Shown here piece by piece: positions 861 to 44,335 of a stretch of DNA of 64,000 nt. Numbering within the stretch: position 1 is the stretch's first letter; each line of letters begins with the position of its first letter. The DNA lies in assembly GCA_965655095.1 (NCBI GenBank), contig OZ296650.1:35464001-35528000 (forward strand), read 5' to 3'. A model generated the notes under the pieces. The model made no database searches. It worked only from the letters and a program-made list of their open reading frames with translations, and was not told the DNA's origin. The translations under genes were made by a program, and so were the position numbers. This DNA is from Haplodiscus bocki. Taxonomy: Eukaryota.

Positions 861-2092
861 GGATCCTTGACTGACGAGCTTGCGACAAAGAGTATAAACA
901 AGCGCTCTATTTTCCAACATTTGTAACAGAATAAAAGTCATACTGGCTATGTCCTAAAGGTCGCCGTACTCTTTAAATGTCACCGCTGCTCTAAAGTGGT
1001 CAATTCATCAAGAAAGATCCGAATGAGGAGAGACACCTGTTAGTTTGTCATGAATTTTTTTTGACGTTTTATAAAACAACGTGTTTCAACCACGAGAATC
1101 CTTGTCTAATGAACTCCGTTTTGTTTTCAGATTTTGACAATAGATATTCAAAGGCTTTCAAGAACATGGAAAAATTTGACTCTCAAAACCTTTGTGTGTA
1201 AGATAACTTTATTAGTTGTAACGGTACCACAAGTTGGATCAGCAGAAACGTACAGGATTTTCATTAAATTCTTCCAACTTGAAATTAGCTCCATTTTTGC
1301 AAGGCAAGTCCAATCCGAGGTATTTGGTTGAGTTGTTTGTTGATGCTTTTAGTGGGTTTCATGCTCAAATCAAAACTTAAAGACAAAATGATTTTTTTGA
1401 AGATTTATATTGGCGCAAACGGCAAGTCCACGCAGCGTTTGTCAATTTACAATCAACGTTGTTTCGGCAAGCGGTGGATCTTGACTTTTGAAGACGAGTG
1501 TGTCAAAGGAGAAGAGTTCGATCAATCATAACGTTTTTTACAAAGGCAAAATATTCAACGTATTGATTAGCCGGGTCAATTGGAAAGATTTTGAATTTTC
1601 CCTCCTGGCTTCGGCTTCAACAGCACAAACTGCAACCTAAACTTGGTAAAAAAAACCTGGTACCACCACTAGTAAAAGAACGAGCTGTTGAACCAAAAAT
1701 TGATCTAGAAATCTGATCATTTTGATTTTTTTTCAAGTTCTGAGATGTTCAGTTGTTAGATATCCTGGGTGATTTTCGAAGACAACAGGCCATGATTTCT
1801 TCCTGAAAGCATTTGAAACGACTTCAATCAAAAATGTTTTTGGATGTGGAAAACTTGATGAATAGAAAAACTCAACAAATCTCATTTACTGCATTCTCAA
1901 GCATACATTAATAAAATGCTAAGTTATAACCCTCTTGAAAAGAAGAATTGAGCTTGCCCAAACCTGTTAGACGGAGGCAGGAGAACCAATGAATTTCTAA
2001 CCAAATTGAAAACAATTTGATCACATCCGTTTGAATGAGATGAACACCACAACTTGTTGACAGTGTGAGAACAAGAAAAAATGTGTACATGT
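860..2092 (+). pseudogene. Polinton/Maverick pPolB internal fragment (representative copy; present in every unit)
   Basis: Frame-hopping plus-strand translation across copies gives GSMTDELA.KS, HTCYV..F..LF..HRCS, LVESFVD, FEDECVK, QFLQTHKNQ.IDLQDQLER, GFGFNSANCNLNLVKKHL.P.LVIERDVEP, LKAFETT and NPLEK. These resemble the N-terminal/exonuclease region of Polinton pPolB (GFNSxxYD exo motif). Many stops and frameshifts. Confidence 0.8.
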
Positions 2093-5000: not shown

Positions 5001-5195
5001 TCTCAAGCGTACATTAAAAAAATGCGCAATTAAAACCTCTTGCAAAGAAGAATTGAGCTTCTCCAAGCCTGTTAGACGGTGGCAGGAGAACCAATGGTTT
5101 GCTAACAAAATTGAAAACGATTTGGTCACATGCGTTTGAAGGATATGAACACCCATACTTGTTGACAGTGTGAGAACAAGTAAAAATCTGCACAT

Positions 5196-6027
5196 GTAAC
5201 AGAATGTGGTCTTTCCAACCACTGAACCCATCTCTTGTGCCATTGATTCCCGGAGGCGACTTGGTTGAGTCGTTTGTTGATGCTTTTAGTGGGTTTCATG
5301 CTCAAACTAAAACTTAAAGACAAAATGATTTTTTGAAGGTTTACATTGGCGCAAACAGCAAGTCCACGCACCGTTTGTCAGCTTAGAATCAACGTTGTTT
5401 CGGCAAGCGGTCAATCTTGACTTTTGAAGACAAGTGTGTCAAAGGAAAACAACCGGAATCATCAGAACAGTTTTAACAAGCGCACAAGAATCAATGTATT
5501 GATTTGCATGATCAATTGGAACGATTTTGGACTTTGCTTCGTGGTTTAGGACTCAAAACGGCAAACTCGAATTTAACCTAGTTAAAAAATTACCCGGTAC
5601 CACCAGTGTTAATTGAACGAGATGTTGAACCAAAAATGACCAACAAAGCTGATGATTTTGTTTTTTTTTCCAGTTCTAAGATGTTCAATTGTTAGATTTC
5701 CTGAATTTTTTTTGAGGACAACAGGCCAAGATTTCTTCCTGAAAACATTTGAAACGACTTCAATCAAAAATGTTTCTGGATGTGAAAATCTGGATGACTA
5801 GAAAAACTCAACAAATCTCATTTACTGCATTCTCAAGCATACATTAGAATAATGCGCAATTAAAACCTCTTGCAAAGAAGAATTGAGCTTCTCCAAGCCT
5901 GTTAGACGGTGGCAGGAGAACCAATGGTTTGCTAACCAAATTGAAAACGATTTGGTCACATGCGTTTGAACGAGATGAACACCCATACTTGTTGACAGTG
6001 TGAGAACAAGTAAAAATGTGCACATGT
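5196..6027 (+). repeat. Truncated array unit (~830 bp) with ~725-bp internal deletion
   Basis: Junction CCCGGAGGCGA|CTTGGTTGAG at 5259/5260 joins two sequences that lie ~725 bp apart in normal units. Marker spacing here is 5172 to 6002. Confidence 0.95.
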
Positions 6028-21000: not shown

Positions 21001-24000
21001 GAGAGTCCGATCATTCACAACGTTTTTTACAAACGCAAAATAAGCAACGTATTGTTTAGCAGGGTCAATTGGAAAGATTTTGAATTTTGCCTCCTGGCTT
21101 CGGCTTCAACAGCGCAAACTGCTACTAAACTTGGTAAAAAAAACACCTGGTACCACTACTAGTAATTGAACGAGATGTTGAACTAAAAATGGTCCAAAAA
21201 GCTGATCATTTTGTTTTGTTTCAATTTCTGAGATGTTCAGTTGCTAGATATCCTGAGTTTTTTTCGAGGACAACAGGCCATGATTTCCCCCTGAAAGCAT
21301 TTAAAACGACATCAATCAAAAGTGTTTTTGGATGTGAAAATCCTGATGACTAGAAAATTTCAACAAATCTCATTTACTGCATTCTCAAGCATACATTAAA
21401 AAAATGCGAAATTATAACCCACTTGGAAAGAAGAATTGAGCTTCTCCCAGCCTGTTAGACGGAGGCAGGAGAACCAATGAATTGCTAACCAACTTGAAAA
21501 CAATTCGGTCACATCCGTTTGAACGAGATGAATACCAGTACTTGTTGACAGTGTGAGAACAAGAACAAATGTGCACATGTGTCAGAATTGGGTCTTTCCA
21601 ACCACTGAACCCATATCTTTTGCTTTTGGTTCCTGGAGGCGAAAACAAACTTTTTATGTCTGGTGGAAAGACAATATTCTTTTTTAAGTCAGGATCCTGC
21701 CACTGAAGCTTAACGTCTTCCAGATCCGACATCGGATACTCACTTGCGTCCATCTGTGTTGCGACTTTACTTGAGTGTGGTGCCTGCTATACCTACATAG
21801 TAACTTGCTGGTTGGGAGACCTTGGAACTCTCGCTAGTCGGGTGTCCAAAAGGTCTCAACTGTGCTGAAGTAGCAGATTCTACGCAGCGCTGGATTATTA
21901 GTGGTCGGATCCATGACTGACGAGCTTGCGACAAAGACTATAAGCAAGCGCTCCATTTTCCCACATTTGTAACAGAATACAGGTCATACTGGCTATGTCC
22001 TAAAACTCGCCGTACTCTTTAAATGTCACCGCTGCTCTAATGTGGTCATTTCATCAAGAAAGATCCCAATGAAGAGCGACACCTGTTAATTTGTCATAAA
22101 ATTGTTTTTGAAGTTTTACAACACAACGTGTCTCAACCACGGACATCCTTGTCTGATGAACTGCATTTTTTTCAGATTTTTTGACAATAGATAAAGAAAA
22201 GCTTTCAAGAACTTGGAAAATTTTGGCTCTCAAAACCTCTGTGTGTAAGATAACTTTATTAGTTGTACCGGTACCACAAGTTGGATCAGCAGAAACGTAC
22301 ATGATTTTCATCAATTTCGTCCAACGTGAAATTAGCTACAATTTTGCAAGGCAAGTCCAATCCGAAGTACTTGGTTGAATCGTTTGTTGCGGTTTTTAGT
22401 GGGTTTCATACACAAACTAAAACTTAGAGACAAAATGATGTTTTTGAAGGTTTACATTGGCGCAAACAGCAAGTCCACGCAGCGTTTGTCAATTTGGAAT
22501 CAACGTTGTTTCGGCAAGCGGTGAATCTTGACTTTTGAAGACGAGTGTGTCACAGGAGAAGAGTCCGATCAATCACAACATTTTTTACAAAAGCAAAATA
22601 AGCAACGTATTGTTTAGCAGGGTCAATTGGAAAGATTTTGAATTTTGCCTCCTGGCTTCGGCTTCAACAGCGCAAACTGCTACCTAAACTTGGTAAAAAA
22701 AACACCTGGTACCACTACTAGTAATTGAACGAGATGTTGAACTAAAAATGATCCAAAAAGCTGATCATTTTGTTTTGTTTCAATTTCTGAGATGTTCAGT
22801 TGCTAGATATCCTGAGTTTTTTTCGAGGACAACAGGCCATGATTTCCCCCTGAAAGCATTTGAAACGACTTCAATCAAAAGTGTTTTTGGATGTGAAAAT
22901 CCTGATGACTAGAAAATTTCAACAAATCTCATTTACTGCATTCTCAAGCATACATTAAAAAAATGCGAAATTATAACCCACTTGGAAAGAAGAATTGAGC
23001 TTCTCCCAGCCTGTTAGACGGAGGCAGGAGAACCAATGAATTGCTAACCAACTTGAAAACAATTCGGTCACATCCGTTTGAACGAGATGAATACCAGTAC
23101 TTGTTGACAGTGTGAGAACAAGAACAAATGTGCACATGTGTCAGAATTGGGTCTTTCCAACCACTGAACCCATATCTTTTGCTTTTGGTTCCTGGAGGCG
23201 AAAACAAACTTTTTATGTCTGGTGGAAAGACAATATTCTTTTTTAAGTCAGGATCCTGCCACTGAAGCTTAACGTCTTCCAGATCCGACATCGGATACTC
23301 ACTTGCGTCCATCTGTGTTGCGACTTTACTTGAGTGTGGTGCCTGCTATACCTACATAGTAACTTGCTGGTTGGGAGACCTTGGAACTCTCGCTAGTCGG
23401 GTGTCCAAAAGGTCTCAACTGTGCTGAAGTAGCAGATTCTACGCAGCGCTGGATTATTAGTGGTCGGATCCATGACTGACGAGCTTGCGACAAAGACTAT
23501 AAGCAAGCGCTCCATTTTCCCACATTTGTAACAGAATACAGGTCATACTGGCTATGTCCTAAAACTCGCCGTACTCTTTAAATGTCACCGCTGCTCTAAT
23601 GTGGTCATTTCATCAAGAAAGATCCCAATGAAGAGCGACACCTGTTAATTTGTCATAAAATTGTTTTTGAAGTTTTACAACACAACGTGTCTCAACCACG
23701 GACATCCTTGTCTGATGAACTGCATTTTTTTCAGATTTTTTGACAATAGATAAAGAAAAGCTTTCAAGAACTTGGAAAATTTTGGCTCTCAAAACCTCTG
23801 TGTGTAAGATAACTTTATTAGTTGTACCGGTACCACAAGTTGGATCAGCAGAAACGTACATGATTTTCATCAATTTCGTCCAACGTGAAATTAGCTACAA
23901 TTTTGCAAGGCAAGTCCAATCCGAAGTACTTGGTTGAATCGTTTGTTGCGGTTTTTAGTGGGTTTCATACACAAACTAAAACTTAGAGACAAAATGATGT

Positions 24001-27000
24001 TTTTGAAGGTTTACATTGGCGCAAACAGCAAGTCCACGCAGCGTTTGTCAATTTGGAATCAACGTTGTTTCGGCAAGCGGTGAATCTTGACTTTTGAAGA
24101 CGAGTGTGTCACAGGAGAAGAGTCCGATCAATCACAACATTTTTTACAAAAGCAAAATAAGCAACGTATTGTTTAGCAGGGTCAATTGGAAAGATTTTGA
24201 ATTTTGCCTCCTGGCTTCGGCTTCAACAGCGCAAACTGCTACCTAAACTTGGTAAAAAAAACACCTGGTACCACTACTAGTAATTGAACGAGATGTTGAA
24301 CTAAAAATGATCCAAAAAGCTGATCATTTTGTTTTGTTTCAATTTCTGAGATGTTCAGTTGCTAGATATCCTGAGTTTTTTTCGAGGACAACAGGCCATG
24401 ATTTCCCCCTGAAAGCATTTGAAACGACTTCAATCAAAAGTGTTTTTGGATGTGAAAATCCTGATGACTAGAAAATTTCAACAAATCTCATTTACTGCAT
24501 TCTCAAGCATACATTAAAAAAATGCGAAATTATAACCCACTTGGAAAGAAGAATTGAGCTTCTCCCAGCCTGTTAGACGGAGGCAGAAGAACCAGTGGAC
24601 TGCTAACCAAATTGAAAACAATTTGATCACATCCGTTTGAACGAGATGAATACCAGTACTTGATGACAGTGTGAGAACAAAAAAAAAAGTGCACATGTGT
24701 CAGAATGGGGTCTTTCCAACCACTGAACCCATCTCTTGTGCCATTGGTTCCTGAAGGCGGAAAAAAAATTTTTTATGACTGGTGGAAAGACAATATTCAG
24801 GTTTAAGTCAGGATCCTTCCTTTGAAATTTAAAGTCTTCCAGATCCGAAAACGGATACTTACTTGCGTACATCTGTGTTGCGCCTTTACTTGAGTGTGGT
24901 GCCTGCTATATCTACACAGTAACTTGCTGGTTGGGAGACCTTGGAACTCTCGCTAATTGGGTGTCCAAAAGGTCTTAACTCTGCTGAAGTAGCAGATTCT
25001 ATGCAGCGCTGGATTATTAGTGGTCGGATCCATGACTGACGAGCTTGCGACAAAGAGTATAAACAAGCGCTCTATTCTCCAACATTTGTAACAGAATAAA
25101 AGTCATACTTGCTATGTCCTAAAATTCGCCGTACTCTTTACATCTCACCGCTGCTCTAATGTGGTCACTTCATGAAGAAAGATCCGAATGAGGAGCGACA
25201 CCTGTTAATTTGTCATGAATTTTCTTTGACGTTTTACAACACAACGTGTCTCAACCACGGGGATCCTTGTCTAATGAACTGCGTTTTTTCAGATTTTGAC
25301 TAGAGATAAACAAAAGCTTTCAAGAACATGGGCAACCTTGACTCTCAAAAGCTTCGTGTGTGAGGTAAAATTATTAGTTGTATTGATACCACCAGTTGGA
25401 TCGCCATAAACGTACATGATTTTCATCAATTTCGTCCAACTTGAAATTAGCTCCAATTTTCAAGGTAAGTCCAGTCTGAGGTACTTGGTTGAGTCATTTG
25501 TTGACGATTTAGTGGGTTTCATGCACAAATATAAACTTAAAGACAAAATGATTTTTTTTGAAGGTTTACATTGGCGCAAACAGCTAGTCCGCGCAGCGTT
25601 TGTCAGTTTAGAATCAACGTTGTTTCGGCAAGCGGTGAATCTTGACTTTTGAAGACGAGTGTGTCAGAGGAGAAGATTCCGATCAATCACAACGTTTTTT
25701 ACAAACGCAAAAAAATCAACATATTGATTAGCAGGGTCATTTGGAAAGATTTTGAATTTTGCCTCCTGGCTTCGGCTTCAACAGCGCAAACTGCTAACCA
25801 AACTTGGTAAAAAAAACAACTGGTACCACCACTAGTAATTGAACGAGATGTTGAACCAAGAGTGGTCAAAAAAGTTGATCATATTGTGTTTTTTCATCTT
25901 CTGAGATGTTCAGTTGCTGGCTTTCGTGAGTTTTCTCAGAAGACAAAAGACCATGGTTTCTCTCTGAAAGCCTTTCGAAAATGACTTGAATCGAATTGTT
26001 TTCTGGATGTGAAAACCTTGATGACTAGAAAAACCCAATAAATCTCACTTACTGCATTCTCAGGCATATATTAAAAAAATGAGGAACTATAACCCTCTTG
26101 AAAAGAACTATTGAGCTTCTCCAAGCCGATTAGACGGAGCCCGGAGTACAATGAATCACTATCCAAACTGAAAATGAATAAGTCACATCTGTTGGAACGA
26201 GAAACATACCAGTACTTTTTGACCGTGTGAGAACAAGAGAAAATTGTGCACAAATATAAGAATGGGGTTTTTCCGACCACTGAACCCATCCCACGTGCCA
26301 TTGACTCCTGGAGGCGAAAAAAGTGTTTATGCCTGGTGGAAAAACAAAATTCATGCTTTTGTCAAGATCCTCCCACTGAAGCTAAAAGTCTTCCAGATCA
26401 GACACCTGATACTCACTAGCGTCCGTCTGTATTGCGCCTCTACATAAGTTTTTTTCCTGGTGCATCTACTTAAAAACTTGCTGGTTGGGAGTAATTGGAA
26501 CTCTCGCTTTCTGGGTGTCTAAAAGGTCTTAACTCTGCTGAAGTAGCAGATTCTACGCAGCGCTGGATTATTAGTGGTCGGATCCGTGACTGACGAGCTT
26601 GCGACAAAAGTGTAAGCAAGCGCTCTATTTTCCAACGTTTGTAACAGAACAAAAGTCATACTTGCCATTTCCTAAATTTCGCCGTCCTCTTTAAATCTCA
26701 CCGCTGCTCTAATATGGTCAACTCATCAAGAAAGATCCGAATGAGGAGCGACACTTTCAATTTGTCATATATATGTTTTGACGTTTTACAACACAACGTG
26801 TCGCAACTACGGGGATCTTTATCTAGTGAACTGCATTTTTTTGAATGTTGACAATAGATAATCGAAAGCTTTCAAGAACATAGGAAACTTTGACTCTCAA
26901 AAGCTTCGTGTGTGAGGTAAATTTATTAGTTGTACTGATACCACAAGTTGGATCGGCAGAACCGTACATGATTTTCATCAATTTCGTCCAACTTGAAATT

Positions 27001-30000
27001 AGCTTCAATTTTGCAAGGCAAGTCAAGTCTGAGGTACTTGGTTGAGTCATTTGTTGACGATTTAGTGGGTTTCATGCACAAATTTAAAATTAAAGACAAA
27101 ATTATTTTTTCTGAAGGTTTACATTGGCGCAAACAGCTAAACCGCGCAGCGTTTGTCAGTTTAGAATCAACGTTGTGTCGGCAAGCAAAAAATCTTGACT
27201 TTTGAAGACGAGTGTGTCAGGGGAGAAGAGTCCGATCAATCACAACGTTTTTTACAAACGCAAAAAAATCAACATATTGATTAGCAGGGTCTTTTGGAGA
27301 GATTTTGAATTTTGCCTCCTGGCTTCGGCTTCAACAGCGCAAACTGCAATCCAAACTTGGTAAAAAAAACAACTGGTACCACCACTAGTAATTGAACGAG
27401 ATGTTGAACCAAGAGTGGTCAAAAAAGTTGATCATATTGTGTTTTTTCATCTTCTGAGATGTTCAGTTGCTGGCTATCGTGAGTTTTCTCAGAAGACAAA
27501 AGACCATGGTTTCTCTCTGAAAGCCTTTCGAAAATGACTGGAATCGAATTGTTTTCTGGATGTGAAAACCTTGATGACTAGAAAAACCCAATAAATCTCA
27601 CTTACTGCATTCTCAGGCATATATTAAAAAAAATGAGGAACTATAACCCTCTTGAAAAGAACTATTGAGCTTCTCCAAGCCGATTAGACGGAGCCCGGAG
27701 TACAATGAATCACTATCCAAACTGAAAATGAATAAGTCACATCTGTTGGAACGAGAAACATACCAGTACTTTTTGACCGTGTGAGAACAAGAGAAAATTG
27801 TGCACAAATATAAGAATGGGGTTTTTCCGACCACTGAACCCATCCCACGTGCCATTGACTCCTGGAGGCGAAAAAAGTGTTTATGCCTGGTGGAAAAACA
27901 AAATTCATGCTTTTGTCAAGATCCTCCCACTGAAGCTAAAAGTCTTCCAGATCAGACACCTGATACTCACTAGCGTCCGTCTGTATTGCGCCTCTACATA
28001 AGTTTTTTTCCTGGTGCATCTACTTAAAAACTTGCTGGTTGGGAGTAATTGGAACTCTCGCTTTCTGGGTGTCTAAAAGGTCTTAACTCTGCTGAAGTAG
28101 CAGATTCTACGCAGCGCTGGATTATTAGTGGTCGGATCCGTGACTGACGAGCTTGCGACAAAAGTGTAAGCAAGCGCTCTATTTTCCAACGTTTGTAACA
28201 GAACAAAAGTCATACTTGCCATTTCCTAAATTTCGCCGTCCTCTTTAAATCTCACCGCTGCTCTAATATGGTCAACTCATCAAGAAAGATCCGAATGAGG
28301 AGCGACACTTTCAATTTGTCATATATATGTTTTGACGTTTTACAACACAACGTGTCGCAACTACGGGGATCTTTATCTAGTGAACTGCATTTTTTTGAAT
28401 GTTGACAATAGATAATCGAAAGCTTTCAAGAACATAGGAAACTTTGACTCTCAAAAGCTTTGTGTGTGAGATAACTTTATTAGTTGTACTGATACCACAA
28501 GTTGGATAGGCAGAAACGTACATGATTTTCATCAATTTCGTCCAACTTGAAATTAGCTTCAATTTTGCAAGGCAAGTCAAGTCTGAGGTACTTGGTTGAG
28601 TAATTTGTTGATGATTTAGTGGGTTTCATGCACAAATTTAAACTTGGAGACAAAATGATTTTTTTAAGGGTTTACATTGGCGCAAACAGCAAGTCCGCGC
28701 AGCGTTTGTCAATTTAGACTCAACGTTGTTTCGGCAAGCGGTGAATCTTGACTTTTGAAGACGATTGTGTCACAGGAGAAGAGTTTGATCAATCACAACG
28801 GTTTTCACAAACGCAAAATAATCAACGTATTGATTAGCAGGGTCAGTTGGAAAGCTTTTGAGTTTTGCCTCCTGGCTTTGGCTTCAACAGCGCAAACTGC
28901 AATCCAAATTTGGTAAAAAAAACACCTGGTACCACCACTATTAGTTGAACGAGATGTTGAACCAAGAGTGGTCAAAAAAGTTGATCATATTGTGTTTTTT
29001 CTTCTTCTGAGATGTTCAGTTGCTGGCCTTAGTGAGTTATCTCGGAAGACAACAGATCATGATTTCTCCCTGGAAGCCTTTAGAAAATCACTGGAATCGA
29101 ATTGTTTTTTGGATGTGAAAACCTTGATGACTAGAAAAACTCAACAAATCTCACTTACTGCATTCTCAAGCATATATTAAAAAAATGAGGAACTATAACC
29201 CTCTTGAAAAGAACTATTGAGCTTCTCCCAGCCGATTAGACGGAGCCCGGAGTACAATGAATCACTATCTAAACTGAAAATGAATAAGTCACATCTGTTG
29301 GAACGAGAAACAAACCAGTACTTTTTGACCGTGTGAGAACAGGAAATAATTGTGCACAAATATCAGAATGGGGTCTTTCCGACCATTGAACCCATCCCAC
29401 GTGCCATTGATTCCTGGAGGCGAAAAAAGTGTTTATGCCTGGTGGAAAAACAAAATTCATGCTTTTGTCAAGATCCTCCCACTGAAGCTAAAAGTCTTCC
29501 AGATCAGACACCTGATACTCACTAGCGTCCGTCTGTATTGCGCCTCTACATAAGTTTTTTTCCTGGTGCATCTACTTAAAAACTTGCAGATTGGGAGTAA
29601 TTGGAACTCTCGCTTTCTGGGTGTCTAAAAGGTCTTAACTCTGCTGAAGTAGCAGATTCTACGCAGCGCTGGATTATTAGTGGTCGGATCCATGAGTGAC
29701 GAGCTTGCGACAAAGAGTATAAGCAAGCGCTCTATTTTCCAACGTTTGTAACAGAACAAAAGTCATACTTGCCATATCCTAAATTTCGCCGTCCTCTTTA
29801 AATCTCACCGCTGCTCTAGTGTGGTCAACTCATCAAGAAAGATCCGAATGAGGAGCGACACTTTTAATTTGTCATATATATTTTTTGACGTTTCACAACA
29901 CAACGTGTCGCAACTACGGGGATTTTTATCTAATGAACTGCATTTTTTTTGGATGTTGACAAAAGATAATCGAAAGCTTTCAAGAACATGGGATACCTTG

Positions 30001-32759
30001 ACTCTCAAAAGCTTTGTGTGTGAGATAACTTTATTAGTTGTACCGATACCACAAGTTGCATCGGCAGAAACGGACATGATGTTCATCAATTTCATTCAAC
30101 TTGAAATTAGCTCCAATTTTGCCAGGCAAGTCCAGTCTGAGGTACTTGGTTGAGTCATTTGTTGATGATTTAGTGGGTTTCATGCACAAATTTAAACTTA
30201 AAGTTAAAATGATTTTTTTAAAGGTTTACATTGGCGCAAACAGCAAGTCCGCGCAGCGTTTGTCAATTTAGAATCAACGTTGTTTCGGCAAGCGGTGAAT
30301 CTTGACTTTTGAAGACGAGTGTGTAACAGGAGAAGAGTCTGATCAATCACAACGGTTTTCACAAACGCAAAATAATCAACATATTGATTAGCATGGTCAC
30401 TTGAAAAAATTTTGGATTTTGCCTCATGGCTTCGGCTTCAACAGCGCAAACTGCAATCCACACATGGTTAAAAAAAACACCTGGTACCACCACTAGTAAT
30501 TGAACGAGATGTTGAACCAAGAGTGGTCAAAAAAGTTGATCATATTGTGTTTTTTCATCTTCTGAGATGTTCAGTTGCTGGCTTTTGTGAGTTTTCTCGG
30601 AAGACAGCAGACCATGATTTCTCTCTGGAAGCCTTTCGAAAATGACTGGAATCGAAATGTTTTCTGGATGTGAAAACCCTGTTGACTAGAAAGACTCAAC
30701 AAATCTCACTTACTGCATTCTCAGGCATATATTAAAAAAATGAGGAACTATAACCCTCTTGAAAAGAACTATTGAGCTTCTTCAAGCCGATTAGACGGAG
30801 CCCGGAGTACAATGAATCACTATCCAAACTGAAAATGAATAAGTCACATCTGATCGAACGAGAAACCTACCAGTATTCGTTAACCGTGTGAGAACAAGAG
30901 AAAAATGTGGACATATATGAGAAGGGGGTCTTTCCAACCAGTGAACCCATCCCACGTGCCATTGATTCTTGGAGGCGAAAAAAGTGTTTATGCCTGGTGG
31001 AAAAACAATATTCATGCTTTTGTCAAGATCCTCCCACTGAAGCTAAAAGTCTTCCAGATCAGACACCTGATACTCACTTGCGACCGTCTGTATTGCGCTT
31101 CTACTTAAGTTTTTTTCCTGATGCATCTACTTAATAACTTGCTGTTTGGGAGTAACTGGAACTCTCGCTTTTTGGGTGTCCAAAAGGTCTAAACTCTGCT
31201 GATGTAGCAAATTCTACGCAGCATTTTGTTATTTGTAGTCTGATCCACGACTGACGAGTTTACGAGGAAAAGTTAAAGCAAGCGTTCTATTTTCCAACAT
31301 CTGTAACAGAATAGAGGTCATACCTGCTCTGTTTCCAGTTTCAACATACTCTTTGAATCTCACGGCTGCTCTAATGAGGTCAATTCCTCAGAGCTTCGAA
31401 TTGTCATGGAATTGTTATGACGTTTTACAACGCAACGTGTCTCAACAATGATGAACCTTGTCTTGTGAACAGCATTTTTTCGGACTGCTTCCACAGACAA
31501 TCAAAAGCTCTACAGGAACATGGGAAAATTTTACTATGAAATCATTTGTGAATAAGGTAGTTTTATTAGTTGTATCGATACCTTTAGTTGGATCGGTAGA
31601 ACTGTTCAGAAGTTTCATCAATTCCGTCCAACTTGAATTTAGCCTCAAATTTGCAAGGCAAGTCCTTTCCGAGGGACTTGGTTGAGTCACTTGTTGATGC
31701 TTTTGGTGGGTTTCATGCAAAAATTAAAGTTTACAGACACGATGATTTTGTTGATGGTTTACAATTGCGCAAACATTAAGTTCACCCATGATTTGTCAAT
31801 TTTCAATCAACGTTGTTTCGGCAAGCGGTGAATCTTGACTTTTGAAAACGAGTTTTTCAACGGACAAGAGTCTGATCAATTTCAACGTTTTTTACAAACG
31901 CAAAACAATGAACGAATTGATTTGCAGGGTCAATTGGAAAGATTTTGAATTTTGCTCCTGGCTTCAAATTCAACAGGGCAAACTGCAACTTATACTTGGT
32001 AAAAAAGCACCTAGTACGACCAGTATTAGTTGAAGGAGATGTTGAACCAAGAGTGGTCAAAAAGTCTGATCAGTTTGTGTTTTTCATGTTGTGAGATGTT
32101 CAGTTGCTAGATTTGTTCATTTCAATCGCAGGACAACAGGCGTTGATTTCCTCCAGAAAGCCTTTATGTCAACTGGTATCAAAAATCTTTCTGAATGTGA
32201 AAAAAATTATGATTAGAAGAACTCAACAAACATCAATTACTGCCGTCTGAAGCTTACCTTAAAAAATTGCGAAACTAAAACCCTCTTGAAAAGAACTAAT
32301 GAGGTTCTGCAAGCCTATTATACGGAGGCAGGAGAACCAATGAATCAGTATCAAAATTGAAAAGTATTGAGTCACATCTGATTGAACGTCAAAAACGCCA
32401 GTACTTGTTGACCGGGTGAGAAGACAAAATGTGCACAAGTGTCAGAATGGGGTTTTTCCAACCACTGAACCCATCTCTCGTTCCATTGAATCCTGGAGGC
32501 GAAAAATTGTTCATGTCTGGTGGAAAAACAATATTCATGTTTAAGTCAGGATGCTGCCACTGAAGCTTAATGTCTTCCAGATCAGACACATGATACTCAC
32601 TTGCATCCATCTGTTTTGCGCTTTTACTTGAAAGGGATTCCCGCTGCATATACGGAGTAACTTGCTGGTTGGAAGTAATTGGAACTCTCGCTCATCAGGT
32701 GTCCAAAAATTCTTAACTCTGCCGAAGTAGCAGATTCTACACAGCCTTGGGTTATCTGT

Positions 32760-35700
32760 AGTCGGATCCATGATTGGCGAGTTTGCGAGAAAGAGTATAA
32801 GCAAGCACTCTATGTTTCCACAACTGCAACAGAAGAAACGTCATACTTGCTATGTCTCCAATTTTACCGTACTCTTTGAATCTCACCGCGGGTCTAATGT
32901 GCTAAATTTATCAAGAGAGCTCCGAATGAAGAGCGACACCTGGAGATTTGTCGAGAAAGTTTTATTACGTTATACAAAGCAAAGTGTATCAAATATGGAA
33001 AACTTTGTCTTATGAACTGCTTTTCTTCGAGTTTCTTCAACAGAAAATCAAAAGCTTTTCAAGATCATGGGAAAATTTGACGCGTAGGTTAACTTTATTA
33101 GTTTTATCAATACCGCAAGTTGGATTGATAGGAACGTAAAAAACTTTCATCAATTTCTTCCAACTTCATATCATGTCCAAATCCGGTAGGCAGGTAAATA
33201 TTGAGGCACTTGGTTGAGTTACTTGTTAATTTTTCAGTGGTTACAATCACAAATCATCGTTTATAGAAAAAAATGATTTTTGAAGGTTTTCAGTGGCGCA
33301 AACAGCAAGTTCACACAACTTTTGTCAATTTACAATCAACGTTTGGCAAGGGGTGAATCATGACTTTTGAAGACGAGCGTGTCAACGGAGAAGAGTCAGA
33401 TTCATCAGAACACTTTTTACGATCGCACAAGTATCAAACCTGTTGATTTGCAGGACCAATGGGAAAGATTGTGAATTTTGCTTTCTGGTTTCGGCTTCAA
33501 CAGGCAAACTGCAACTTAAACTTGGTAAAAAACAACCTGGTACCACCACTAGTAATTGAAGGAGAGGTTGAACAACTAATGATCAGGAAGGTTGATCATT
33601 TTGTGTTTCTCAAGTTCTGAGTTTTTCAGTTCCTAATTTTTTGGGTTTTTATGGAGAACAACAAGCCCTGATGTCTTCATGAATGCTTTTAAAACGACTG
33701 GAATCAAAAAAACTTCTGCATATGAAAAACTTCATGATTAGAAAAACTCAGCAAATCTCATCTAATGCCTTATGAAACTTACTTTAACAAAATGCACAAC
33801 CATAACGCTGTTGAAAGCCTGTTAGGCGGACGCAGGAGAACCAATGGATCACTACCCTACTGATATTGGTTTATTCACATCTGGTTGAACATGAAAAAGA
33901 CCGGCACTTGTCGAACGTGAGAACAAGACAAAATATGCACAAGTAGAGACTTTTAACGCAGTTGTGGAAAAAAGTGTTTCTAATGTTAGTGACCATGTGA
34001 CTGGTTGTGAATTTCTAGCCACAGTAAAGAAAACTGATAGCTGAATACTTGCACTGTCATAAAACAATCAAAAGTTCGTCTTCAAAAGTCAACTTTCTCA
34101 AAAACTTATCCCTTGACTGAAATTGACAAAGAAATGTTGTAGAAAGTAGAAGCTACGGTTAGTGGCACTTCAATTATGATTAGACGGAAAACTATTGCGT
34201 AGGAGACTCTTGTTTGTGACTCACTAAGCATGTCATAGCTTCTTGATGAAACTGATGCAGGTTCATTCTGCCCTATTCTATGTTTCAAGCGATTTCTACT
34301 GAACTATGGACCAGATGGTACCACAACTCTGAATCTGGTGAGGTCGAACCACGTCAAAACAAGACGATAGTCTCTGGAACTATGGTAATGTCGGACTTTC
34401 AGAGAGTCAAACGACCGTGTGAAATAAGGAACTTCTGCATCACGGGCATACATAAAAAACGCTTGTGTCTTTGATGAGAACGCTTTTGTACATAAAAAAC
34501 GCTTTTGTGCGCACTGTAGCAATGTGCTTCAAGCTATGGGATACCTTTGTAATTTTCATCTTTAGCAGCAACCTCGTCCTTTTCTCACCGACGGAAAAAA
34601 GTAGAGAGGTTTAAAAAAACAGTTGGATGAACTACGGAAACATATATAGAATGAAAGGCCTCTGACGTTTTGCAGGTGTACGAATGTGATTGTTGAAAAC
34701 TGTGCAAGGCACACTGTTTTGTTAACAAAATCTGCGCGAGTCTCTGTACTACAAAATGATTCTCAGAGAACGAAGACTTTTGAAAGGTGTCACAATTAGA
34801 AGTCCTTTTGGTGATATACAGTAAAACATTGAGGTGCCAGAGGAATTTGGGTAGGACTTACCAACTTTTCCACCATCCCTCAAGAACATTTATGTTGGTG
34901 GAGTTGACATTGGTTGGCCCATAAAAGAAAACAATAAGAGAAAAACTTTCAACTCAGCCGGGAAAAATGCTGATATAATGCTTTTTCGCGGATTTTGGAA
35001 CAGTCCTTACACTATTCTTGCTCCCTTATTAGTATTGCGGCCTGTTTGCAGAAACGTGATCATTTTTTGCAGTTTTTTCCAAAGAAATAGTCCAACGACT
35101 TTTTTCAGTTTTCATGGGAAGATAGAACAGAGGCAGGTGCGAATTCAAACTCCAGTAGAGCGCTTGAGACAAGGAAGTCACTAGTTAACATTTCCTAGGG
35201 TTACCAGAACATGAATCGGTGTAGGGATACAGTAACGATGTATATCATGGAAGAAAAGAGGCATGGTGCCAACAACCACAAAAAAGTTCAAATGCTTGAG
35301 TTATACAAACTATCCAATATATGAGGTACAACTTAAGTAGTCAGCATTTGAACTCAACCGATAACTGTAGGATTTTTTTCCGGGAATGTTCAGATTTGAG
35401 AATGCTATTTCTTTACTATGAGGTTTTTCGACAAATTTTGCGTTGTTACAAGGTTTGAAAAATGGAAATGGATACAGATTGCTCCACTCTAGCATAAGCC
35501 GATCAAAACTTGTATGATTGTAGCTGACCAACATTTAAAATGGAATAGGCTTCCCTGAGAAACGGATATTTCATGGAAATCTTTTCTGCCATTGCAAAAA
35601 CTAATTTTAATCCTCATATTTGCTGCACTAAGCATAAAAAACACAATAAACCACAACTGGAACTGTGCAGGGAAAGTTCCACAGCACTGAATTGATATGT

Positions 35701-35965
35701 CTGTGCAAGAAAACGTTTTGTTGTAAGATTCTCTGACTGATAAATTCAACAATAACAGTAAATGGTTGAATAAAGAACGCTTGGAGATTGTGGGTACCCG
35801 GTACGAGAAGTAATGTCAGAAAGTGTTCTTGAATTGTCAACCAAAAGAGGTTTTGGCTCATTTGAACATACTGTCTTTATATATGAGCAACCAAAAAAGG
35901 GGTTGTTTTACATTCATTCCAAAAGCAAAATTCCGCAAGATAGACTACACACTTATCCCCTTTAT
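32760..35965 (+). pseudogene. Polinton/Maverick protein-primed DNA polymerase B pseudogene (terminal array copy plus single-copy 3' remainder)
   Basis: Collinear decayed motifs: MIGEFARKS (32770); motif A-like ETDAGSFCP (34248); MFQAISTELWTRW..SESG..EPRQNKT (34280); motif B-like ETRKSLVNIS*GYQNMNR (35166-35219; KxxxNSxYG); motif C EMDTDC (35465-35482; DTDS); C-terminal YEQPKKGLFYIHSK (35882). Many stops and frameshifts. Confidence 0.85.
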
Positions 35966-36325
35966 AAACAATTATAGCCAGTTCACTTTTAGGTTTCATT
36001 CAATACCATTTACAGAAAGTTGTTTCTTCAGTGCATTTGAACTAATTCACACTTTTAAACCTTAGTTCAATCTTTTTACGTACCATTAAGTCTTAAGAGC
36101 TTCCGCAGACCAAATTATCTATCCGCAGGCGTGTTGTTTAACCACAGTTGTAAAGAACTTCCCGCCTACGTCCTAAACAATTTGGACGGGACACCGGCAA
36201 ATGTTCAAAAGAAATTTTCCCAAAAGTCTCACTGTGCCGATAATGGGAAACACAATTTCAGTTTCCTACCTCAATTCAATACCTAAATCGGGCTAATTTC
36301 CTTATAAAACTTGGTTATCGCATCT

Positions 36326-36834: not shown

Positions 36835-39800
36835 ATATCAAACATTTGATTTTGGTTTCACTATAACTGATTGCATTACCAATCTATAACCCTCCACAGT
36901 TCCATTGTTGGCAAAAAGCATAATATCACCTTGTCGTCCTTTGAAAAGGAGGAAACGTTAGGTGGAAAACAACGTCAACCCAACAAGTAGGAAAAACTGT
37001 TTTCCGAACTTCTTGTTTATATGTATTCAGTTGATTGATTGAAACGACACCAGTGTTTCACTTGTAAAATTCATACAGAGAATAGCGGGGGGACAAAAAT
37101 GAATCCGTGGTATTACTTCAAAAAGACGTCCGTAATCTGGAAAACAGGCTGTACGAGTTGTTCCTCAGAAAATCTGGGCCGAACATTTGTGTAATCAACT
37201 GGATTAATAGTTTTTTGATTAAACGTATAGTTCTTCTATTCAAGAAATTTCTACGTAGGTTCCAAAAAGCAGGAAAATTTGGTCCATCGAATTGGTTTGT
37301 GCAAAGATTTTTAACTTAAACCTCACTTATGTCTACAACTAACTTGAATGGAAGGGGCTTGGTGATTTTGATTGGAATCCGGAATTTTTCAGAAAAAAGC
37401 GTTATTTTTTCGCACCCACCGAACGCCGAAAATACTTGAAGCAACTTGAGGTTGCGGAGTTGTTCACACAATAAAGTGAACAAACTCGTTTTTAGAATTG
37501 TTGCAACTGCATCGTGGGAAAAAATGGTATTTTTTGGAATGGCAAGTCGCTGGCATCTGTAACAAAAAAGAAAAACCCCCGAGCTCTGCTCAAGTCGTTT
37601 GGCAATCTTAAAGCCAAATTCGAGCAAAATGTAGCAAATATCTTTTGTTTTTGACTCCGGATCATATGGCCTCGCCTAATTATGTGTTGTTAGTAAATCC
37701 ATTGTAATGTTTCAGGAAGTGAACTGAGATTTTATACCGTTTACTCACGAAACAACAGCGTCAGTAAGAGAAGTATAAACGGTTTCGCAAAATCTCATGG
37801 ATGTTTCAGGGTGATCTACGGTCTTGAGTTGGAGAACTTACTGACACCTTGAGAATCTTTGCAGGACTTTTTTTAACCCGTGAAGCTGAGAACCGCAAGC
37901 ACACGCTTTTAACTGGGACGACTATCAAGAAATCAAAACCGTTCCCTCTTTCAGAGGATGTTTTATTAGCAGCAAGTGTACTTTGGAAAATATTACCTGC
38001 ATTCATGAAGAAGTGAAAAAAAGTGTTTCCAGGAAACGTAGTGGCTGGACATTTTCAGGAATTTGTTGGTTGTATCCACTGAACTTTGGTTGAAAAGTGA
38101 GTTATTTCCTTCACTTTACGCAATAGACCAGTTAAATGGACTTCACTTTTCTGAATCCAGAAAGATAACCGCGGTAACTGACGGAGTGCACTTGATCTGG
38201 TCTCATCAATTAATTTTACCATCCTCAGTGTACCATTAACAGATGCTCAATTGGATTTAATCTTTGATTTTATAAAGATACCAGTTGAGTTGGGGAATTT
38301 AACGGTTAATCGGAGTGAGTATCATTTTAGAATGAACTTTTGACTTTCCACCAGCCAAATCAAGTGGCGCAGGACAAAGTCGACTAGAAAACATTGAAAC
38401 CTTGTGTTTAAAAAGGGAAACGGTGACTGCAGCGAAACGCTCTGTGCAAATTCGATTGGAGATATGGATCTAACTGGAGGCGTATCAACGGGTTATCAAA
38501 ACTTTTCTACAAACCTTGCATCTCGTAGCAAGCTGTTGGAATTGAAACAACAAAGAATCATCACTCACGACCATCTTCGTCACCTCCCAATTTTGCGGAG
38601 TCAAAACATACACTCTGCGAGAACTGTTGACAAAAAAAATGTTAAGGAGAAAGTGATGAGTTCTCTTTAGCCTCCAAGAGTTCTCCAGAACAGAGACAGT
38701 CTTTCATTTGTTTATTGTATTGAAATTTTGTGCTAAATCAAAGAAATCGTTGTTTTGGCCGAGTAATTGGACAAAATTCTTCCTTTGAACATTGGCAGCT
38801 TTCTCGTTTCTTGTTTTTGTTCTGCAGACCATTTTAAAATTTTCTTGCTGGTCAGCACTTTCCATTTGTTCTCCGGACTATTGGTGTCCTTATCTGTTTT
38901 TGGTAAACCCTGCAAGTGTTAGTGAGGTGTTATTCAGGGTGCCGCAGAACTAACCAAAGAAAAACCTCTGATGAAACGAGTATCGGTAACATTGACGTCT
39001 GTCGATAACATCAAGACAAAGAAACGACTTGAGCTATCGCAGCAAAAACTTCGGATAAACAGATGATTGTTTTAGGAAATTCTCATGTCCGATGGGCTCA
39101 GTTGGAACTGAAAGAAGAACAATTGCAGAACGAGAAAGTTGACTACAAAACCTGCTCGGGTATTCAGGTAGAAATACTCCTTTCTTTAGTTAGGTACATT
39201 TCTTCCTAGAATTATTTAGAAGAACAGTTTCAAAAGAACGGTAGTTTGAAAGCGAGAGGTCTTTTAAAAGAAAAGGATGACTTTGAGGTACAAAAAGCTG
39301 ACAATATGCAGGGAGTTGAAACCTTTTTCCAACACGATGTAAAAATTACTAACACGTTGTAAGAATTTTGTTAAGAAAAGACAGACGAGACACAGTTTAA
39401 ATTCGTAATCTGGGACTTTGAAAAATGTAGCATTCAAAATTGGATGTCTACTAACGTTTCTGTTTTGGCGTCGTATATTCTGATATGGCAAACAAAAACT
39501 AAAAGTCTGCGTTTTTACAATTTACTGTTTGAATGAACAAATTTCGTTATTGCTTAAGTTTTGCCAGCAATTTTCCATCCAAAAACTGAGATGATGTAAA
39601 AACTTTGATTCGAAAACCGACGATTTGTAAAAAACTACGATCAATTAAATTTTGGAATCAAAATCTGACGTTTGTAAAAGGATTCGTGGTGCAGAGAAAG
39701 TCTTTCTGAAAAAACACACAAATGGCAGAAATTGGCAGCTTCACTGACTAGAAGGAGTCAGGACGAGGTAATTGAAAATTAAAGTTTTGTCTAAAATCTT

Positions 39801-42800
39801 GTGAGCAATTTTTACCGGCAACTGACCCAATAAAAAGTTAATTGGGCGGTCGGGCAAAAAACTTTTGATTCAAAAACTGAAACATAGTGAAGTACTTTTT
39901 GAGTCGAAATTTTGCGTTTGGAGAAATTTTTTGCCAGCTATGTGGGCTTTTTTGACCAGAACACAATTTGGTTGATTTCACGATGTGAAAAATTCAAAAC
40001 GTCTTTTTTGTATGCGAAATTGTGTTCAAAGTCCAATTTTTATAAATAATTTCGATTTCAAAAAGTCAGAGGCTGTAAACGGGTCCAAAACAGATTTTGC
40101 CACGTTGTAGAACGTTTAGATTCACAATCTGACTTACAGCAAAACCTATCAATTTTGGTTATAGTTATATGGTTATATCTGGTTTTAACCTTGTTTTTAA
40201 GCGCCTCTTTAATTGATCAACTTTTTGTCAAAATTCGGAACAATTGCTGCTTAGGGCAGTAGTAGTAGAAGTAGAAACAACTATCTACTTTGATAGTAGA
40301 CACTTATTGTCAGCATAAGTACAAGCAAAGTTGCGACACACTTCGTTTTTTTCATCTTCTAACTAAATTTGCTATGACGATTGACTTTTTTCACAGACTC
40401 AACACAACTCTCTGGAGCGTGAAAACTAAGTGAAAATCATTGTTTCTCAGAAAAAACTTTCCAAACTATAGATAGGTGTTCTTTGAGTCACATTCCTGAA
40501 AACGAAAAGAATTTCAACAGCAGTAGATTTTTTTGGTTCTGAGAGCGTTTTTTGAGGAAAAATGTTGTTCTGTTAGAACTAACGCTCCACAGTTTCTTAT
40601 CCAAAGCTGTGTGAAACTTGTCCATCGTTATGTTGGAATTGGTTGGAATATGCCAACGCAACTGACGTGTGTTGCAACCTCGGTTGTACACATGGACTCC
40701 TCACTGACACAGCCCAATCGGGTGAATGGTTTTCGCATATGCTCTGTCCAACAATTGTTTCGAATTTTGACAATAAAAACGTGATTCAGGGAGAAACTCA
40801 AAATTAAGGTGATAACCAGATCTTGTATCAAAACTTCAACGATTTGCTTTAACTCAGATTGTGAGTCTGACGTTCCTCCAACAAGTCAGATTCTAAGTGG
40901 GGTTCACCTACAACGTAACAGTTTTCAAGTTTAAAGTTACTTTCAAAAATCTGATTTTGAACATAATTGCACATACAAAAACGATGTTTTGATTTTTTCA
41001 CACCTTGAAAGTGTTCTTTTAGTGTTATTTCCAAAAGAGAACACGATTCAGGCAAATGCTTTCGGCAAAAGCCAATATTCGAATCAAAGTTTAAACAACT
41101 TATGAGCTATCCTCCAAAAAAATCACAACGATTTTTTTTTGAAGAAACAAACTTATCTGACTGATTTTGCGTGTTCATTTCTGCAAAAAGTCGGTTTTTG
41201 ATTATAAAATGTAGATTTCAGACGAAGCTTTGGTTTTGAAAAACCATTTTTTATTTTACTTCACTCTGTAAAAACTTCGAGTTTTACCATTTGTGTGCGC
41301 TTTCAAAACACACGACTCTGCCAGATAAATAACTTGCAACCGTCAGATTTCGATTGAAAAAAATTCAAAGTGATTGTGGTTTCTTATGACAAGTCAGATT
41401 TGAAATCAAGATTTTTGCATCATGTCAGTTTTTGTGTGAAACTTTTTTTGCAAAAACTTGGACCTTGAAGTAATTTGTTCATCCAAGAAGAGGCTTTGTA
41501 ACAACGTCAATGATTTCTGTGTTTATTATGTGAACGCACGTTGCTGATGCCGGAACGTTAAAGACAATAAATTTTGAATGGAAAAACTTCACTGTGTCAG
41601 ATTATGATTATCAATTTTTTGCTGCTGGTCGTCTTTTGAATGAGAAATCCTACAATCTGTCAGTAATGTTCACATTGCGTTAGCATATGGAGGAGAATCT
41701 GCGCATGTTGTTAGATTTTCCTATTTGAAACGCTTTCTTTGCATTTAATACTCTCAACTTCACATTAACCTTATCTTGGAACTGTTCCACTGTAAATTCC
41801 GACACAAAAAGTAACTTAACTACAAAAATGATGGTTCCTACATTATTACCTGATCATTTTTTTGCCACCAACTTTCTTTTTCTGCAAATAGTATACTTTG
41901 TCTACCCCAGGAAACTCCTCATACATGAAAAAATTTCTTCAATGAGGCCTTTGTTTTTCTGAAGTTTTGGTTGCGATAGCCCAAGTTAGTTTTTTATTTT
42001 GCTTGTAACGACAAAAGTCAGTGTTACCAAAACCATTTCAATATAGTTTTTTATCAAATAAAATCTGCTGCACCCAGAATAGCATCTCAGTAGCCATTGC
42101 AAAGCTTATCAAAACTGGCAGAAACATTAATTGTCCTGAGAACAAGTGGAAAATGCTGACAAGTGAGGAATTTTTAGATTGCCCTGCAGAAGAAATGCAA
42201 GAATTGAGAAAACCGCAAATCTTCAAATGAGGCCTTTTTTTCCAAATATTTTGCCAAAAAACAACGAATTCTTTGATTTAGTACAAGTTTTGAAAAGAAT
42301 GAACAAATGAAAGACTGTCTGTGTTCTAGGGAGAAGTTTGCCTAATTTAAAAATTTTTCAGAGTAAAATTACGATAAAAAAACGAGAAGGCTGCTATTTT
42401 TTAATTCAAGAGTTTTGTCCGAGAAATTGGCCCAAACAACGGAATTTTTGATTTAGCACAAACTTTAATAACACTGACCAATTGAAAGCCTATGTCTGCT
42501 TCGGGGACCTTTTGAAGACTAGAATGAAAATCATCTTATTCTCCTTATTCTCTTCCTCGTCGACTATTTTTGCAAAGTATAAATTCAAGTCTGGGAAAAA
42601 GAACGTGACGAAGATGACCCTGAGTGATGATTATCTAGTTTTTTTTCGAAAGTTGTTTTTCAGGATACAGAGTTAGTTGAAAAGACAATCATAACCTGTT
42701 GAAACGTATCCAATTCGATCCACGTTCCCAATCAACTTTGCACAGAATCGTTCGCTGCTGTCAATTTTTCCATTTTTCAGCTGAAAAGATTTAATTGTTT

Positions 42801-44335
42801 CCCAGTCTCGTCTGTCTTGTGCCGCTTGGTTCAAGTGGTGGAAACTCAACAGTCTGGCCTAAAACAATATACACTGTGATTAAACAGTAACTCCCCAAAA
42901 TCTAGTGGTATCTCTGTAAAATCAAAAAGGAGGTCAAATTGATCACCTGTGATTTGTAAACTGAGGATGTCAGAATCAAAATCAAAAGACCATATCTTGT
43001 GAAATCCATCAGTAACCGCCAATATACTACTGGATGCTTTAGGGATAAGTAAATTAAACTGTTCTAGTGCGTAAAGTAATTGTGAATCTTAGCAAAAAAG
43101 TACTTATAGTCACTTTTCAGCAGAAAACGAAGAGAATTCAACCGAAAAGAATTCGGGAAACTTCAAGCCACTAATTTTCATGGAAGGAAAAAACTTCGAT
43201 TCGTCATGAAGTCAACGAACAAGTTCCGGAAGAAAATTGCTACTGCTGAAGACATCCCCGAAAAAACTGTTGTAATTTCATGATAGTCGTCTACGTTTAC
43301 AGAGTGCGCTTCTCGTTTCAGTATCATGAGCTACACAAAAACTCTCAAGGTAGTCAGGGTGGCAGTGAAATACCTGACTCGAGACCGTTGCTCATCGACA
43401 TAAATCTGTAAAAGACTGAGAAAACATGTATACTTGTCCTACTGCCGGTTTCATATCATTGGTTATCGGTATGAACAATCGTTTCCGAGACAAAATAGAA
43501 AGTTACTAACTTTTACATTGACAGGTGAGGCTAAATGATTTGGAGTCGAACACAGAAAATATTTGCTACTTTTTAAACAAAAAAGGCTTTTAGTTCTTCA
43601 ATTGACTTGATCATAGCTCGGTGTGGACCTATTTAAGTTACGCAAGCCAACGATGCTGCCACTCCTAGAACTATTTATTTTTTCAAAATGCTTCTCCAAG
43701 AATTCCAAAAAAGGGTGGGAGTGTTGTGTGAACAACTCTACAACTTCAAGTTCATTGTCTTTTTGGCGTTCAATTTGTGCAAGGAACATCTACTTTCGTT
43801 TTAAATCTCGAATTTCATTCAAAATCCCCAGAGCCATTTCCTCCAAAACTTGTTTTGACTAATGACAGAGGTGGTAGATAAATTAAATCTTTTTGCACAA
43901 TTCATTTTGAAGAACCAAAAGTTTCTGTTACTTGGAGTCTTTGCAGACAATGCTTGACCAGAATAACTAACTTTTCCATCCTTCCAATTGACAACTATTT
44001 TCAATGGACAAATGCAAAACTCCATTTCAGAAAGAAGATTCAGACAACTGCCCAAATTAGTGATGGTGTTCTACCTGAGCTGTTAACAAAAATAGGACAG
44101 GTCTTTCCGCTATCTTCTCTTTAAAGTTTGAAAGGAAAACACTGAAAAACATTTAATCAACCGAATGAATTCAAACAGAAGTATCTTTAACTCTTTTCGA
44201 GTAAAGTATCTTTTTCCAATGCAAGTGGTTAGGAAACTAGGTAGCATTATGAATGACAATGAAAAATGACTTTGTGTTGATCTTTCTTGTGAGGGAACAG
44301 AGTCGGCTGAGACAGTAAACAAATCAATGGTGATG
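36835..44335. repeat. Ancient ~7.5-kb inverted duplication (palindrome) centred ~40500 with little or no spacer
   Basis: Reverse-complement matches with a near-constant coordinate sum: exact 19-mer 38694-38712 / 42302-42320; GGTAACA.TGAC 38985/42028; ATCTGGTT 40177/40821; TGGAGCGT 40413/40589. ORF pair 38733..38915(-) and 42021..42230(+) share PENKWK.LTS. Outer homology visible to ~36840/44330. Confidence 0.9.

Follow-up and report, generated by a model that had tools for sequence, protein, structure and literature searches.

The stretch at 37016-44180 is a genuine, long-decayed palindrome of 7.2 kb, which adjoins recognisable Polinton sequence and does not lie inside it. We consider it moderately probable that this palindrome is an ancient non-autonomous foldback-type DNA transposon, dead and gene-less, with unusually long arms. 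This reading draws on six lines of evidence: (i) arms that end homologously with a 10-bp direct repeat in the right geometry; (ii) a modular organisation of outer domain, tandem units, inner domain and short middle; (iii) a number of units that is unequal between the arms (1 vs 2), as in Tm1; (iv) extra contig pieces that fall on the tandem units and not on the outer domain, as with the TIR-220 of Tetris; (v) a second inverted pair with a perfect flanking repeat; and (vi) the absence of any coding signal from the arms.

Reality, extent and axis of the palindrome

Reverse-complement self-alignment of the window—the whole stretch of 64,000 nucleotides analysed here—resolved two collinear anti-diagonal blocks. 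The outer block pairs 37221-38841 with 43975-42344 at 65.9% identity (coordinate sum ~81190), and the inner block spans 38681-42335 at 63.9% identity (coordinate sum ~81015). In a global alignment, the two arms match over 3380 columns with 66.5% identity and a K2P distance of 0.45, scoring 1955 against -239 to -353 in all five block shuffles, which confirms the claim of an earlier note on this DNA that a hidden palindrome with heavily diverged arms is present. The step between the coordinate sums, attributed in that note to a small duplication, is borne out: the right arm carries a tandem duplication of 178 bp. Homology had also been said to reach within tens of bases of an axis at ~40500, and it does so: the innermost paired bases are 40472 and 40530 (0/300 shuffles reach the inner scores), so that no more than 57 bp are left unpaired around an axis at ~40501. 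On the outside, arm homology is supported up to 37016 and 44179-44180 (0/300 shuffles as high), with probable ends at 37005 and 44188, beyond these statistically supported limits. The outermost ~180 bp (36800-37020 vs 44170-44400) did not rise above chance, with 229/300 shuffles scoring as high, so that the palindrome itself stands while its claimed length of ~7.5 kb is reduced to 7.2 kb.

In runs X1 and X3, a single contig of 20.76 kb covers 34200-46200 and shows 3 and 9 differences, respectively; since the window itself may derive from these runs, they are not counted as independent support. A fold-back artefact of reads or assembly is impossible because the arms are only 66% identical.

Modular anatomy of the arms

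The left arm measures ~3.5 kb and the right arm ~3.7 kb, within a putative element of 7.18 kb. From the outside inward, each arm consists of an outer domain, the 178-bp unit or units, a ~0.65-kb stretch, three ~250-bp units and an inner domain, which leads to the middle (Table 1). Two traits of foldback elements are thus found here, namely very long inverted arms (3.5 and 3.7 kb) separated by no more than 57 bp, and modular arms with internal tandem units (the 178-bp unit present once vs twice, and the ~250-bp units at z 9.8, a value for units picked after inspection).

Table 1. Coordinates of the palindrome, its constituent domains and the neighbouring features within the window
Feature	Coordinates	Strand	Basis
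Head-to-tail array of ~1555-bp units with pPolB fragments, outside the palindrome	1..33944	+	Self-comparison
Broken Polinton pPolB, outside the palindrome	33280..36038	+	Many stops and frameshifts; 145 matches
Left copy of candidate 10-bp target-site duplication, AACTGTTTTC	36995..37004	+	9/10 match to 44189-44198
Left outer non-repetitive domain	37005..38660	+	66.4% to right arm, K 0.45
Left single 178-bp unit, best-conserved stretch	38665..38845	+	78% to R1, 73% to R2
Left three degenerate ~250-bp tandem units	39510..40250	+	z 9.8 vs block shuffles; motif map
Left inner domain, ~220 bp	40251..40472	+	40314-40472 vs 40694-40530, 0/300 shuffles as high
Unpaired middle, axis ~40501	40473..40529	.	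<=57 bp, from end-of-homology shuffle test
Right inner domain and three ~250-bp units	40530..41505	-	Alignment, self-comparison, periodicity test
Right two tandem 178-bp copies, R1 and R2	42165..42520	-	Self-comparison, alignment
Right outer non-repetitive domain	42521..44188	-	Supported to 44179, last 9 bp by eye
Right copy of candidate 10-bp target-site duplication, AACTCTTTTC	44189..44198	+	9/10 match to left copy

The outer domain (~1.65 kb) contains no periodic repeats (z -0.7 to 0.6 in 3/3 controls); in the left arm, its homology is statistically supported from 37016, with 37005-37015 assigned by eye only, and its summed contig depth is 1.0-1.17x that of the spanning contig. The 178-bp unit occurs once in the left arm and twice in the right, where the copies R1 and R2 are 67% identical to each other (distance 0.44). 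Inward of this unit, the ~0.65-kb stretch displays a weak periodicity (z ~4 in two controls that extend into it), and a recurrent A/T-tract motif in the left ~250-bp units points to the axis. As to Polinton termini at the axis, for which an AGT-type motif is known, the left arm bears an AGT-type microsatellite at ~40258 that the right arm lacks.

Divergence, coding content and RNA folding

The mismatch autocorrelation between the arms is flat at lags 1-18, without 3-base periodicity, and the gaps in their alignment ignore reading frame, with 26/60 being single-base and 33/60 shifting the frame by 1 mod 3. Measured per 200 columns, identity stays fairly uniform (0.57-0.78; p 0.024 for heterogeneity) and peaks once, at the 178-bp unit. 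The divergence looks like neutral decay from a single origin, since neither codon periodicity nor a hairpin-RNA bias was found, in keeping with the earlier proposal of a single origin followed by divergence. That proposal also held that the palindrome survived until divergence gave it stability. Its present-day stability is supported by the central 301 nt, which as DNA fold no better than shuffles (z -1.05), and by yeast data: inverted repeats there cease to be unstable at 75% homology, and their instability drops sharply as the spacer lengthens; for long single strands, a decrease is seen only below 75% homology (PMC10164571). At 66% arm identity, the palindrome site is probably inert now.

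A coding origin of the arms was rejected, as arm-arm tblastn comparisons met stops in all frames and 3-base periodicity is absent. Pfam searches of the arms returned 0 families in 12/12 frames, a weak test given that Pfam missed the pPolB relic in 6/6 frames, and this limit applies equally to the absence of a MULE transposase from the arms (12 frames, 92 open frames). Among the 92 open frames, Pfam identified no transposase and one sub-cut-off match, to HTH_36 (E 0.008). One of the six frames of the right arm had 0 matches among 3196 candidates, and an 80-residue frame had no Atlas match at >=0.9. A reassigned stop codon, considered in view of in-frame TGA runs, was ruled out by a 302-codon Tc1 transposase frame that is open in the standard code, and is also countered by arm differences that ignore codon position. 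Searches of the window for tRNA and Rfam families gave no match. An ADD domain suggests that the host is probably an animal.

Whatever its origin, the palindrome might owe its retention, past or present, to a function as a long hairpin-RNA locus, or might carry an exapted element, a reading that we judge improbable. As RNA, the central 801 nt fold into one long imperfect hairpin (z -9.7, 0/20 shuffles), and the left 178-bp unit carries just 5 private changes against 18 in R1 and 28 in R2; equal rates among the copies are rejected (p 1e-4, with the contrast of 5 vs 18 alone being weaker), and a 200-column window as conserved as this unit arises in 2% of simulations. However, the folding follows from the palindrome itself, G-U-compatible mismatches are even between the strands (283 vs 272, p 0.67), the longest perfect arm-arm run is 19 bp with just 2 runs of at least 15 bp, and Rfam is blank in the window. 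Moreover, in the 57-codon open frame over the left unit, 4/5 private changes alter the residue and 1/5 is synonymous. The hairpin RNA suggested earlier is thus unsupported in its selected version, given the even strand counts.

Ends of the element and the flanking direct repeat

The arms stop at homologous positions on both sides, and the candidate target-site duplication outside them implies an element at 37005-44188, with a coordinate sum of 81193 vs 81195 for the anti-diagonal. The chance of such a flanking repeat was 1.2% (narrow search, n=2933), 2.3% (n=1463), 1.8% along the anti-diagonal (n=114) and 4.2-4.3% in a wider search. Under an A/T-tract-rich null, the repeat arises in 9.6% of trials, and at 33.5% divergence a genuine 10-bp duplication would still score this well with a frequency of 10%; because this null equals the expected retention, the likelihood ratio is only ~1-8, and the 10-bp flanking repeat backs insertion to a modest degree. 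The terminal 10 bp of the left and right arms match each other poorly. The modular arms and the candidate duplication, both absent from the earlier note, point to a foldback transposon.

Judged only by the length of the 10-bp repeat, the foldback element is probably Mutator-like, and we infer its mobility, its family membership and its transposase. Under the foldback reading, a transposase acting in trans would have inserted the element 0.4-0.5 kb past the last Polinton-like sequence, duplicating 10 bp of the target. The arms would have been near-identical at insertion, each having since drifted by perhaps ~0.22 substitutions per site, and the element would now be inert, too diverged for cruciform extrusion and with its mobility lost.

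Another long inverted pair (50360-58323), the second in the window, combines 70% arm identity with a perfect 10-bp flanking repeat (chance 0.2-0.6%), which places two pairs with flanking repeats within 25 kb; given this perfect repeat, such insertions seem to occur in the genome. For a third inverted pair in the window, a flanking repeat was not found, and no transposase relic was found inside the second. Any relationship of the palindrome to the second and third pairs was rejected, as the matches fall at inconsistent positions; tests of the second pair against the palindrome arms scored above all 25 shuffles in 2/16 combinations (IR2L) and in 1 (IR2R). Joint retention of both flanking repeats (9/10 and 10/10) would be expected in only ~0.3% of cases if the arms had been identical at insertion; both flanking repeats look younger than the arms they bracket, and the insertions may therefore postdate the splits between the arms. 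A family of giant foldback elements with ~3.5-kb arms that was mobile when these were already strongly diverged, with a 155-bp left-arm stretch also kept by selection, is in our view unlikely.

The geometry of the ends also bears on a different scenario, in which two related ~3.5-kb elements of different subfamilies inserted independently, side by side and in opposite orientation. This would explain the 34% divergence without great age, but neither arm has terminal repeats of its own (4199 off-diagonal comparisons), the ends of the two arms coincide at the homologous base on either side, the contig pieces listed include no close relative of the left or the right arm, and the only duplication-like repeat found in searches of the outer ends sits outside the arm pair. 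We therefore regard independent insertions as very improbable.

Relationship to the neighbouring Polinton relic and tandem array

The frame of the pPolB relic, read with X at stops, yielded 145 matches at E<=0.001, with PF03175 in 3/20 tested. The relic ends at ~35962-36038, ~1 kb from the palindrome, and the contig pieces over it, with a summed depth of 1.6-4.6x that of the spanning contig, stop by ~36600. The tandem array is built from a fragment of pPolB, the same gene as the relic, and its near end lies 3 kb from the palindrome edge. Its units are 75-99% identical (22 compared), with K up to 0.30, a value beneath which homogenisation could mask an older age. The earlier idea that a fragile site at the palindrome drove the array is unsupported, as the array is head-to-tail, 3 kb away, and has a K of 0.30 vs 0.45-0.47 for the arms.

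No Polinton relatives were recovered from viral contigs, and metagenome contigs provided 7 loci, including the near-complete L001 and L002, in which protease, capsid, integrase and ATPase genes begin ~0.74 kb downstream of pPolB, the capsid labels being assigned from size and position. Against nine other L001 ORFs and a 104-sequence putative major capsid profile, a frameshift-aware scan placed the arms at null level: they scored 15.5-27 bits vs reversed-sequence nulls of up to 26.5, and the lone 27-bit match has no mirror in the other arm. As a positive control, the same scan found the pPolB relic at 39-176 bits in 3/4 segments using a single distant query. A candidate capsid relic at ~48100-48420 (tblastn E 0.007 and 0.047) was unconfirmed by profile.

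These comparisons bear on the mechanism put forward in the earlier note, in which the adjacent Polinton folded back within itself while replicating by strand displacement; this is already largely refuted, and we hold it to be highly improbable. The palindrome does lie ~1 kb from the end of pPolB, and for the A/T-tract region of L001 downstream of pPolB, the three highest-scoring matches in the window all fall in the inner arms. However, the inner-arm scores tested, three of them at 1883-2170, were below the maximum of 100 shuffles in 4/4 tests, and the likeness is therefore compositional; the genes downstream in L001 and L002 are undetectable in the arms, none rising above the null, and the arm divergence carries no codon signal. 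With pPolB stopping at ~35962-36038 and Polinton-like pieces by ~36600, a Polinton origin of the palindrome is unsupported. Literature searches, confined to titles, returned none on a Polinton-derived palindrome of such a kind. The palindrome is without demonstrated function and lends no support to Polinton replication making chromosomal palindromes.

Search for further copies and the case for in situ inversion

Among the pieces listed for runs X1 and X3, there is no long second copy at >=80% identity, and the longest other pieces listed are 57-95 bp, all in 34348-36455. Across 3 runs, no long piece at >=80% falls on the arms, a threshold that copies at 66% would escape. No extra contig depth is seen at the ends of the element, and extra short contig pieces fall on the ~250-bp units, at 2.2-2.6x over 39413-39813 and 1.6-1.9x over 41017-41818, where summed contig depth is not equal to copy number. 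In sample S2 (run X4, ~85% read), cover is absent at 40017 and there are gaps elsewhere in the arms; such gaps are not probative, and S2 may perhaps be structurally different inside the left arm.

These results are also compatible with an in situ fold-back inversion followed by neutral decay, the main rival reading and a less likely though possible origin. A broken end would have primed synthesis on itself across a loop no longer than 57 nt and copied ~3.5 kb of repeat-rich host DNA backwards, with one slip giving the 178-bp duplication, before switching back to the chromosome. Such an inversion makes a transposase unnecessary and accords with the lack of a long second copy among the pieces listed. 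The R1-R2 distance of 0.44 matches the arm distance of 0.45-0.47, as if both had arisen together, and MRE11/SAE2-proficient yeast typically forms loops whose median is 36 nt (PMC7467729). Conversely, an inversion does not predict a direct repeat outside both ends, the third copy of an inverted triplication is absent from 5551 chunk comparisons, and such products in yeast needed secondary rearrangements (PMC7467729). Against the foldback reading stand the lack of a long second copy among the pieces listed and of a transposase relic, the weakness of the flanking repeat, the poor match of the arm termini, arms twice as long as the longest Tetris repeat, and a second pair that belongs to a different family.

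Comparison with known systems

Of the Polinton/Maverick elements represented by L001 and L002, the only likeness is in the neighbouring pPolB relic and array, with no Polinton gene detectable in the arms. Hairpin-primed fold-back inversions likewise produce a long inverted duplication with a loop of tens of bases and need no second locus; they are usually resolved by further rearrangement and give no reason to expect a flanking direct repeat, which is present here (PMC7467729).

MULEs such as Muta1 have inverted repeats of >100 bp and an 8-10-bp target duplication (PMC5499845), and the palindrome shares inverted repeats of >100 bp and a candidate duplication of MULE length. Unlike them, it has no conserved terminal motif, its repeats lie near the centre and not at the ends, and a transposase was not found (PMC5499845). 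The Tm1 Mutator/Foldback elements of root-knot nematodes have a 9-bp target duplication, and most members are non-autonomous (PMC3169594). Tm1 and the palindrome share arms that differ in internal unit number and short non-inverted terminal bases. However, Tm1 units are ~14 bp in elements of 0.5-2.6 kb, against units of 178 and ~250 bp in 7.18 kb here, and dozens of Tm1 copies and an autonomous member are known, whereas the palindrome is known from one locus (PMC3169594).

Among the comparable elements considered here, the best described is Tetris of Drosophila virilis, whose arms are built in this order from ~220-bp units and whose target duplications measure 8-10 bp (PMC4079207). Both are non-coding, with long modular inverted arms in the same domain order, and the tandem units of Tetris are commoner in the genome than its flanking domain (PMC4079207), much as the extra contig pieces here concentrate on the tandem units. 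The likeness is by description alone, the units being ~220 bp in Tetris vs 178 and ~250 bp here, and the palindrome differs in its middle of at most 57 bp, its 66% arm identity and the single copy seen (PMC4079207). Its arms measure 3.5-3.7 kb vs at most 1735 bp in Tetris (PMC4079207); if it is a foldback element, they are ~2x the length of those of Tetris, and it would show that elements of this kind can still be recognised when their arms have diverged by 34%, which is beyond what routine repeat annotation detects. The palindrome is an example of how a long inverted repeat with almost no spacer can outlast its unstable phase and, on the foldback reading, is a known kind of element that is notable for its length and age.

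Sequence conservation and possible polymorphism in the left arm of the palindrome

The 178-bp unit, present once in the left arm of the palindrome and as two tandem copies in the right arm, carries only 5 private changes in its left copy (38686-38840), whereas the right-arm copies carry 18 and 28. Private changes are scattered rather than clustered in tracts, and the low number on the left may reflect constraint, patchy conversion or chance. Contigs from X4, the sequencing run of a second sample, provide a weak hint of structural polymorphism within this arm (37376-39610) in that one sample, the run having been read in part: one contig departs from the window sequence at 39610, with 642 letters finding no placement on the window, and a 1-kb contig (37376-38379) has about half the depth of its flanks.

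Additional inverted pairs, mobile elements and repeats

Beyond the palindrome, the window harbors two further inverted pairs and several other features, listed in the table.

Inverted pairs, repeats and open frames in the window
Feature	Coordinates	Strand	Characteristics
pPolB-derived satellite	1-33944		head-to-tail, ~1555-bp units; source, a Polinton pPolB fragment
Second long inverted pair	50360-50736 / 57938-58323		70% identity, K 0.38
Degenerate tandem repeat	56571-57584		~183-bp units, 67-72% identical
Tc1/mariner-type element	58634-59809		transposase frame open for 302 codons; DDE_3 match, E 4e-17
Third inverted pair	60939-61600		about 150 bp, 71% identity
Open frame	62378-63094	-	239 codons; DNMT3-type ADD domain, E 7e-8

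A 10-bp direct repeat without mismatches (50333-50342 / 58333-58342) brackets the second inverted pair, and its probability of chance occurrence is 0.2-0.6%; together, pair and repeat are likely the remains of an 8-kb Mutator-like element whose repeats are subterminal. A search of 78 open frames inside the pair returned no transposase match. The same interval includes a probable BEL/Pao retrotransposon relic (51300-53800), with a Peptidase_A17 match below the cut-off (E 0.017) and, near 52700, a motif that we take to resemble integrase. The ~183-bp repeat, when compared with the 178-bp arm unit, gave no match among the best matches listed.

The Tc1/mariner-type element has terminal repeats of ~39 bp (87%). 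The left arm of the third inverted pair contains a 26-bp tandem repeat, and a search for a direct repeat flanking this pair found none. For the ADD-domain frame, one relative was recovered, at 69% identity; the frame points to an animal as the host.

The pPolB-derived satellite and related Polintons

Among the 22 satellite units compared, identity ranges from 75 to 99%, with the greatest divergence in the final two; one unit, near 5197-6027, is only 830 bp long. In L001 and L002, two related near-complete Polinton loci from metagenome contigs, a tRNA-Asp gene (6008-6079 and 5443-5514, respectively) and an A/T-tract repeat region both lie between pPolB and the protease gene.
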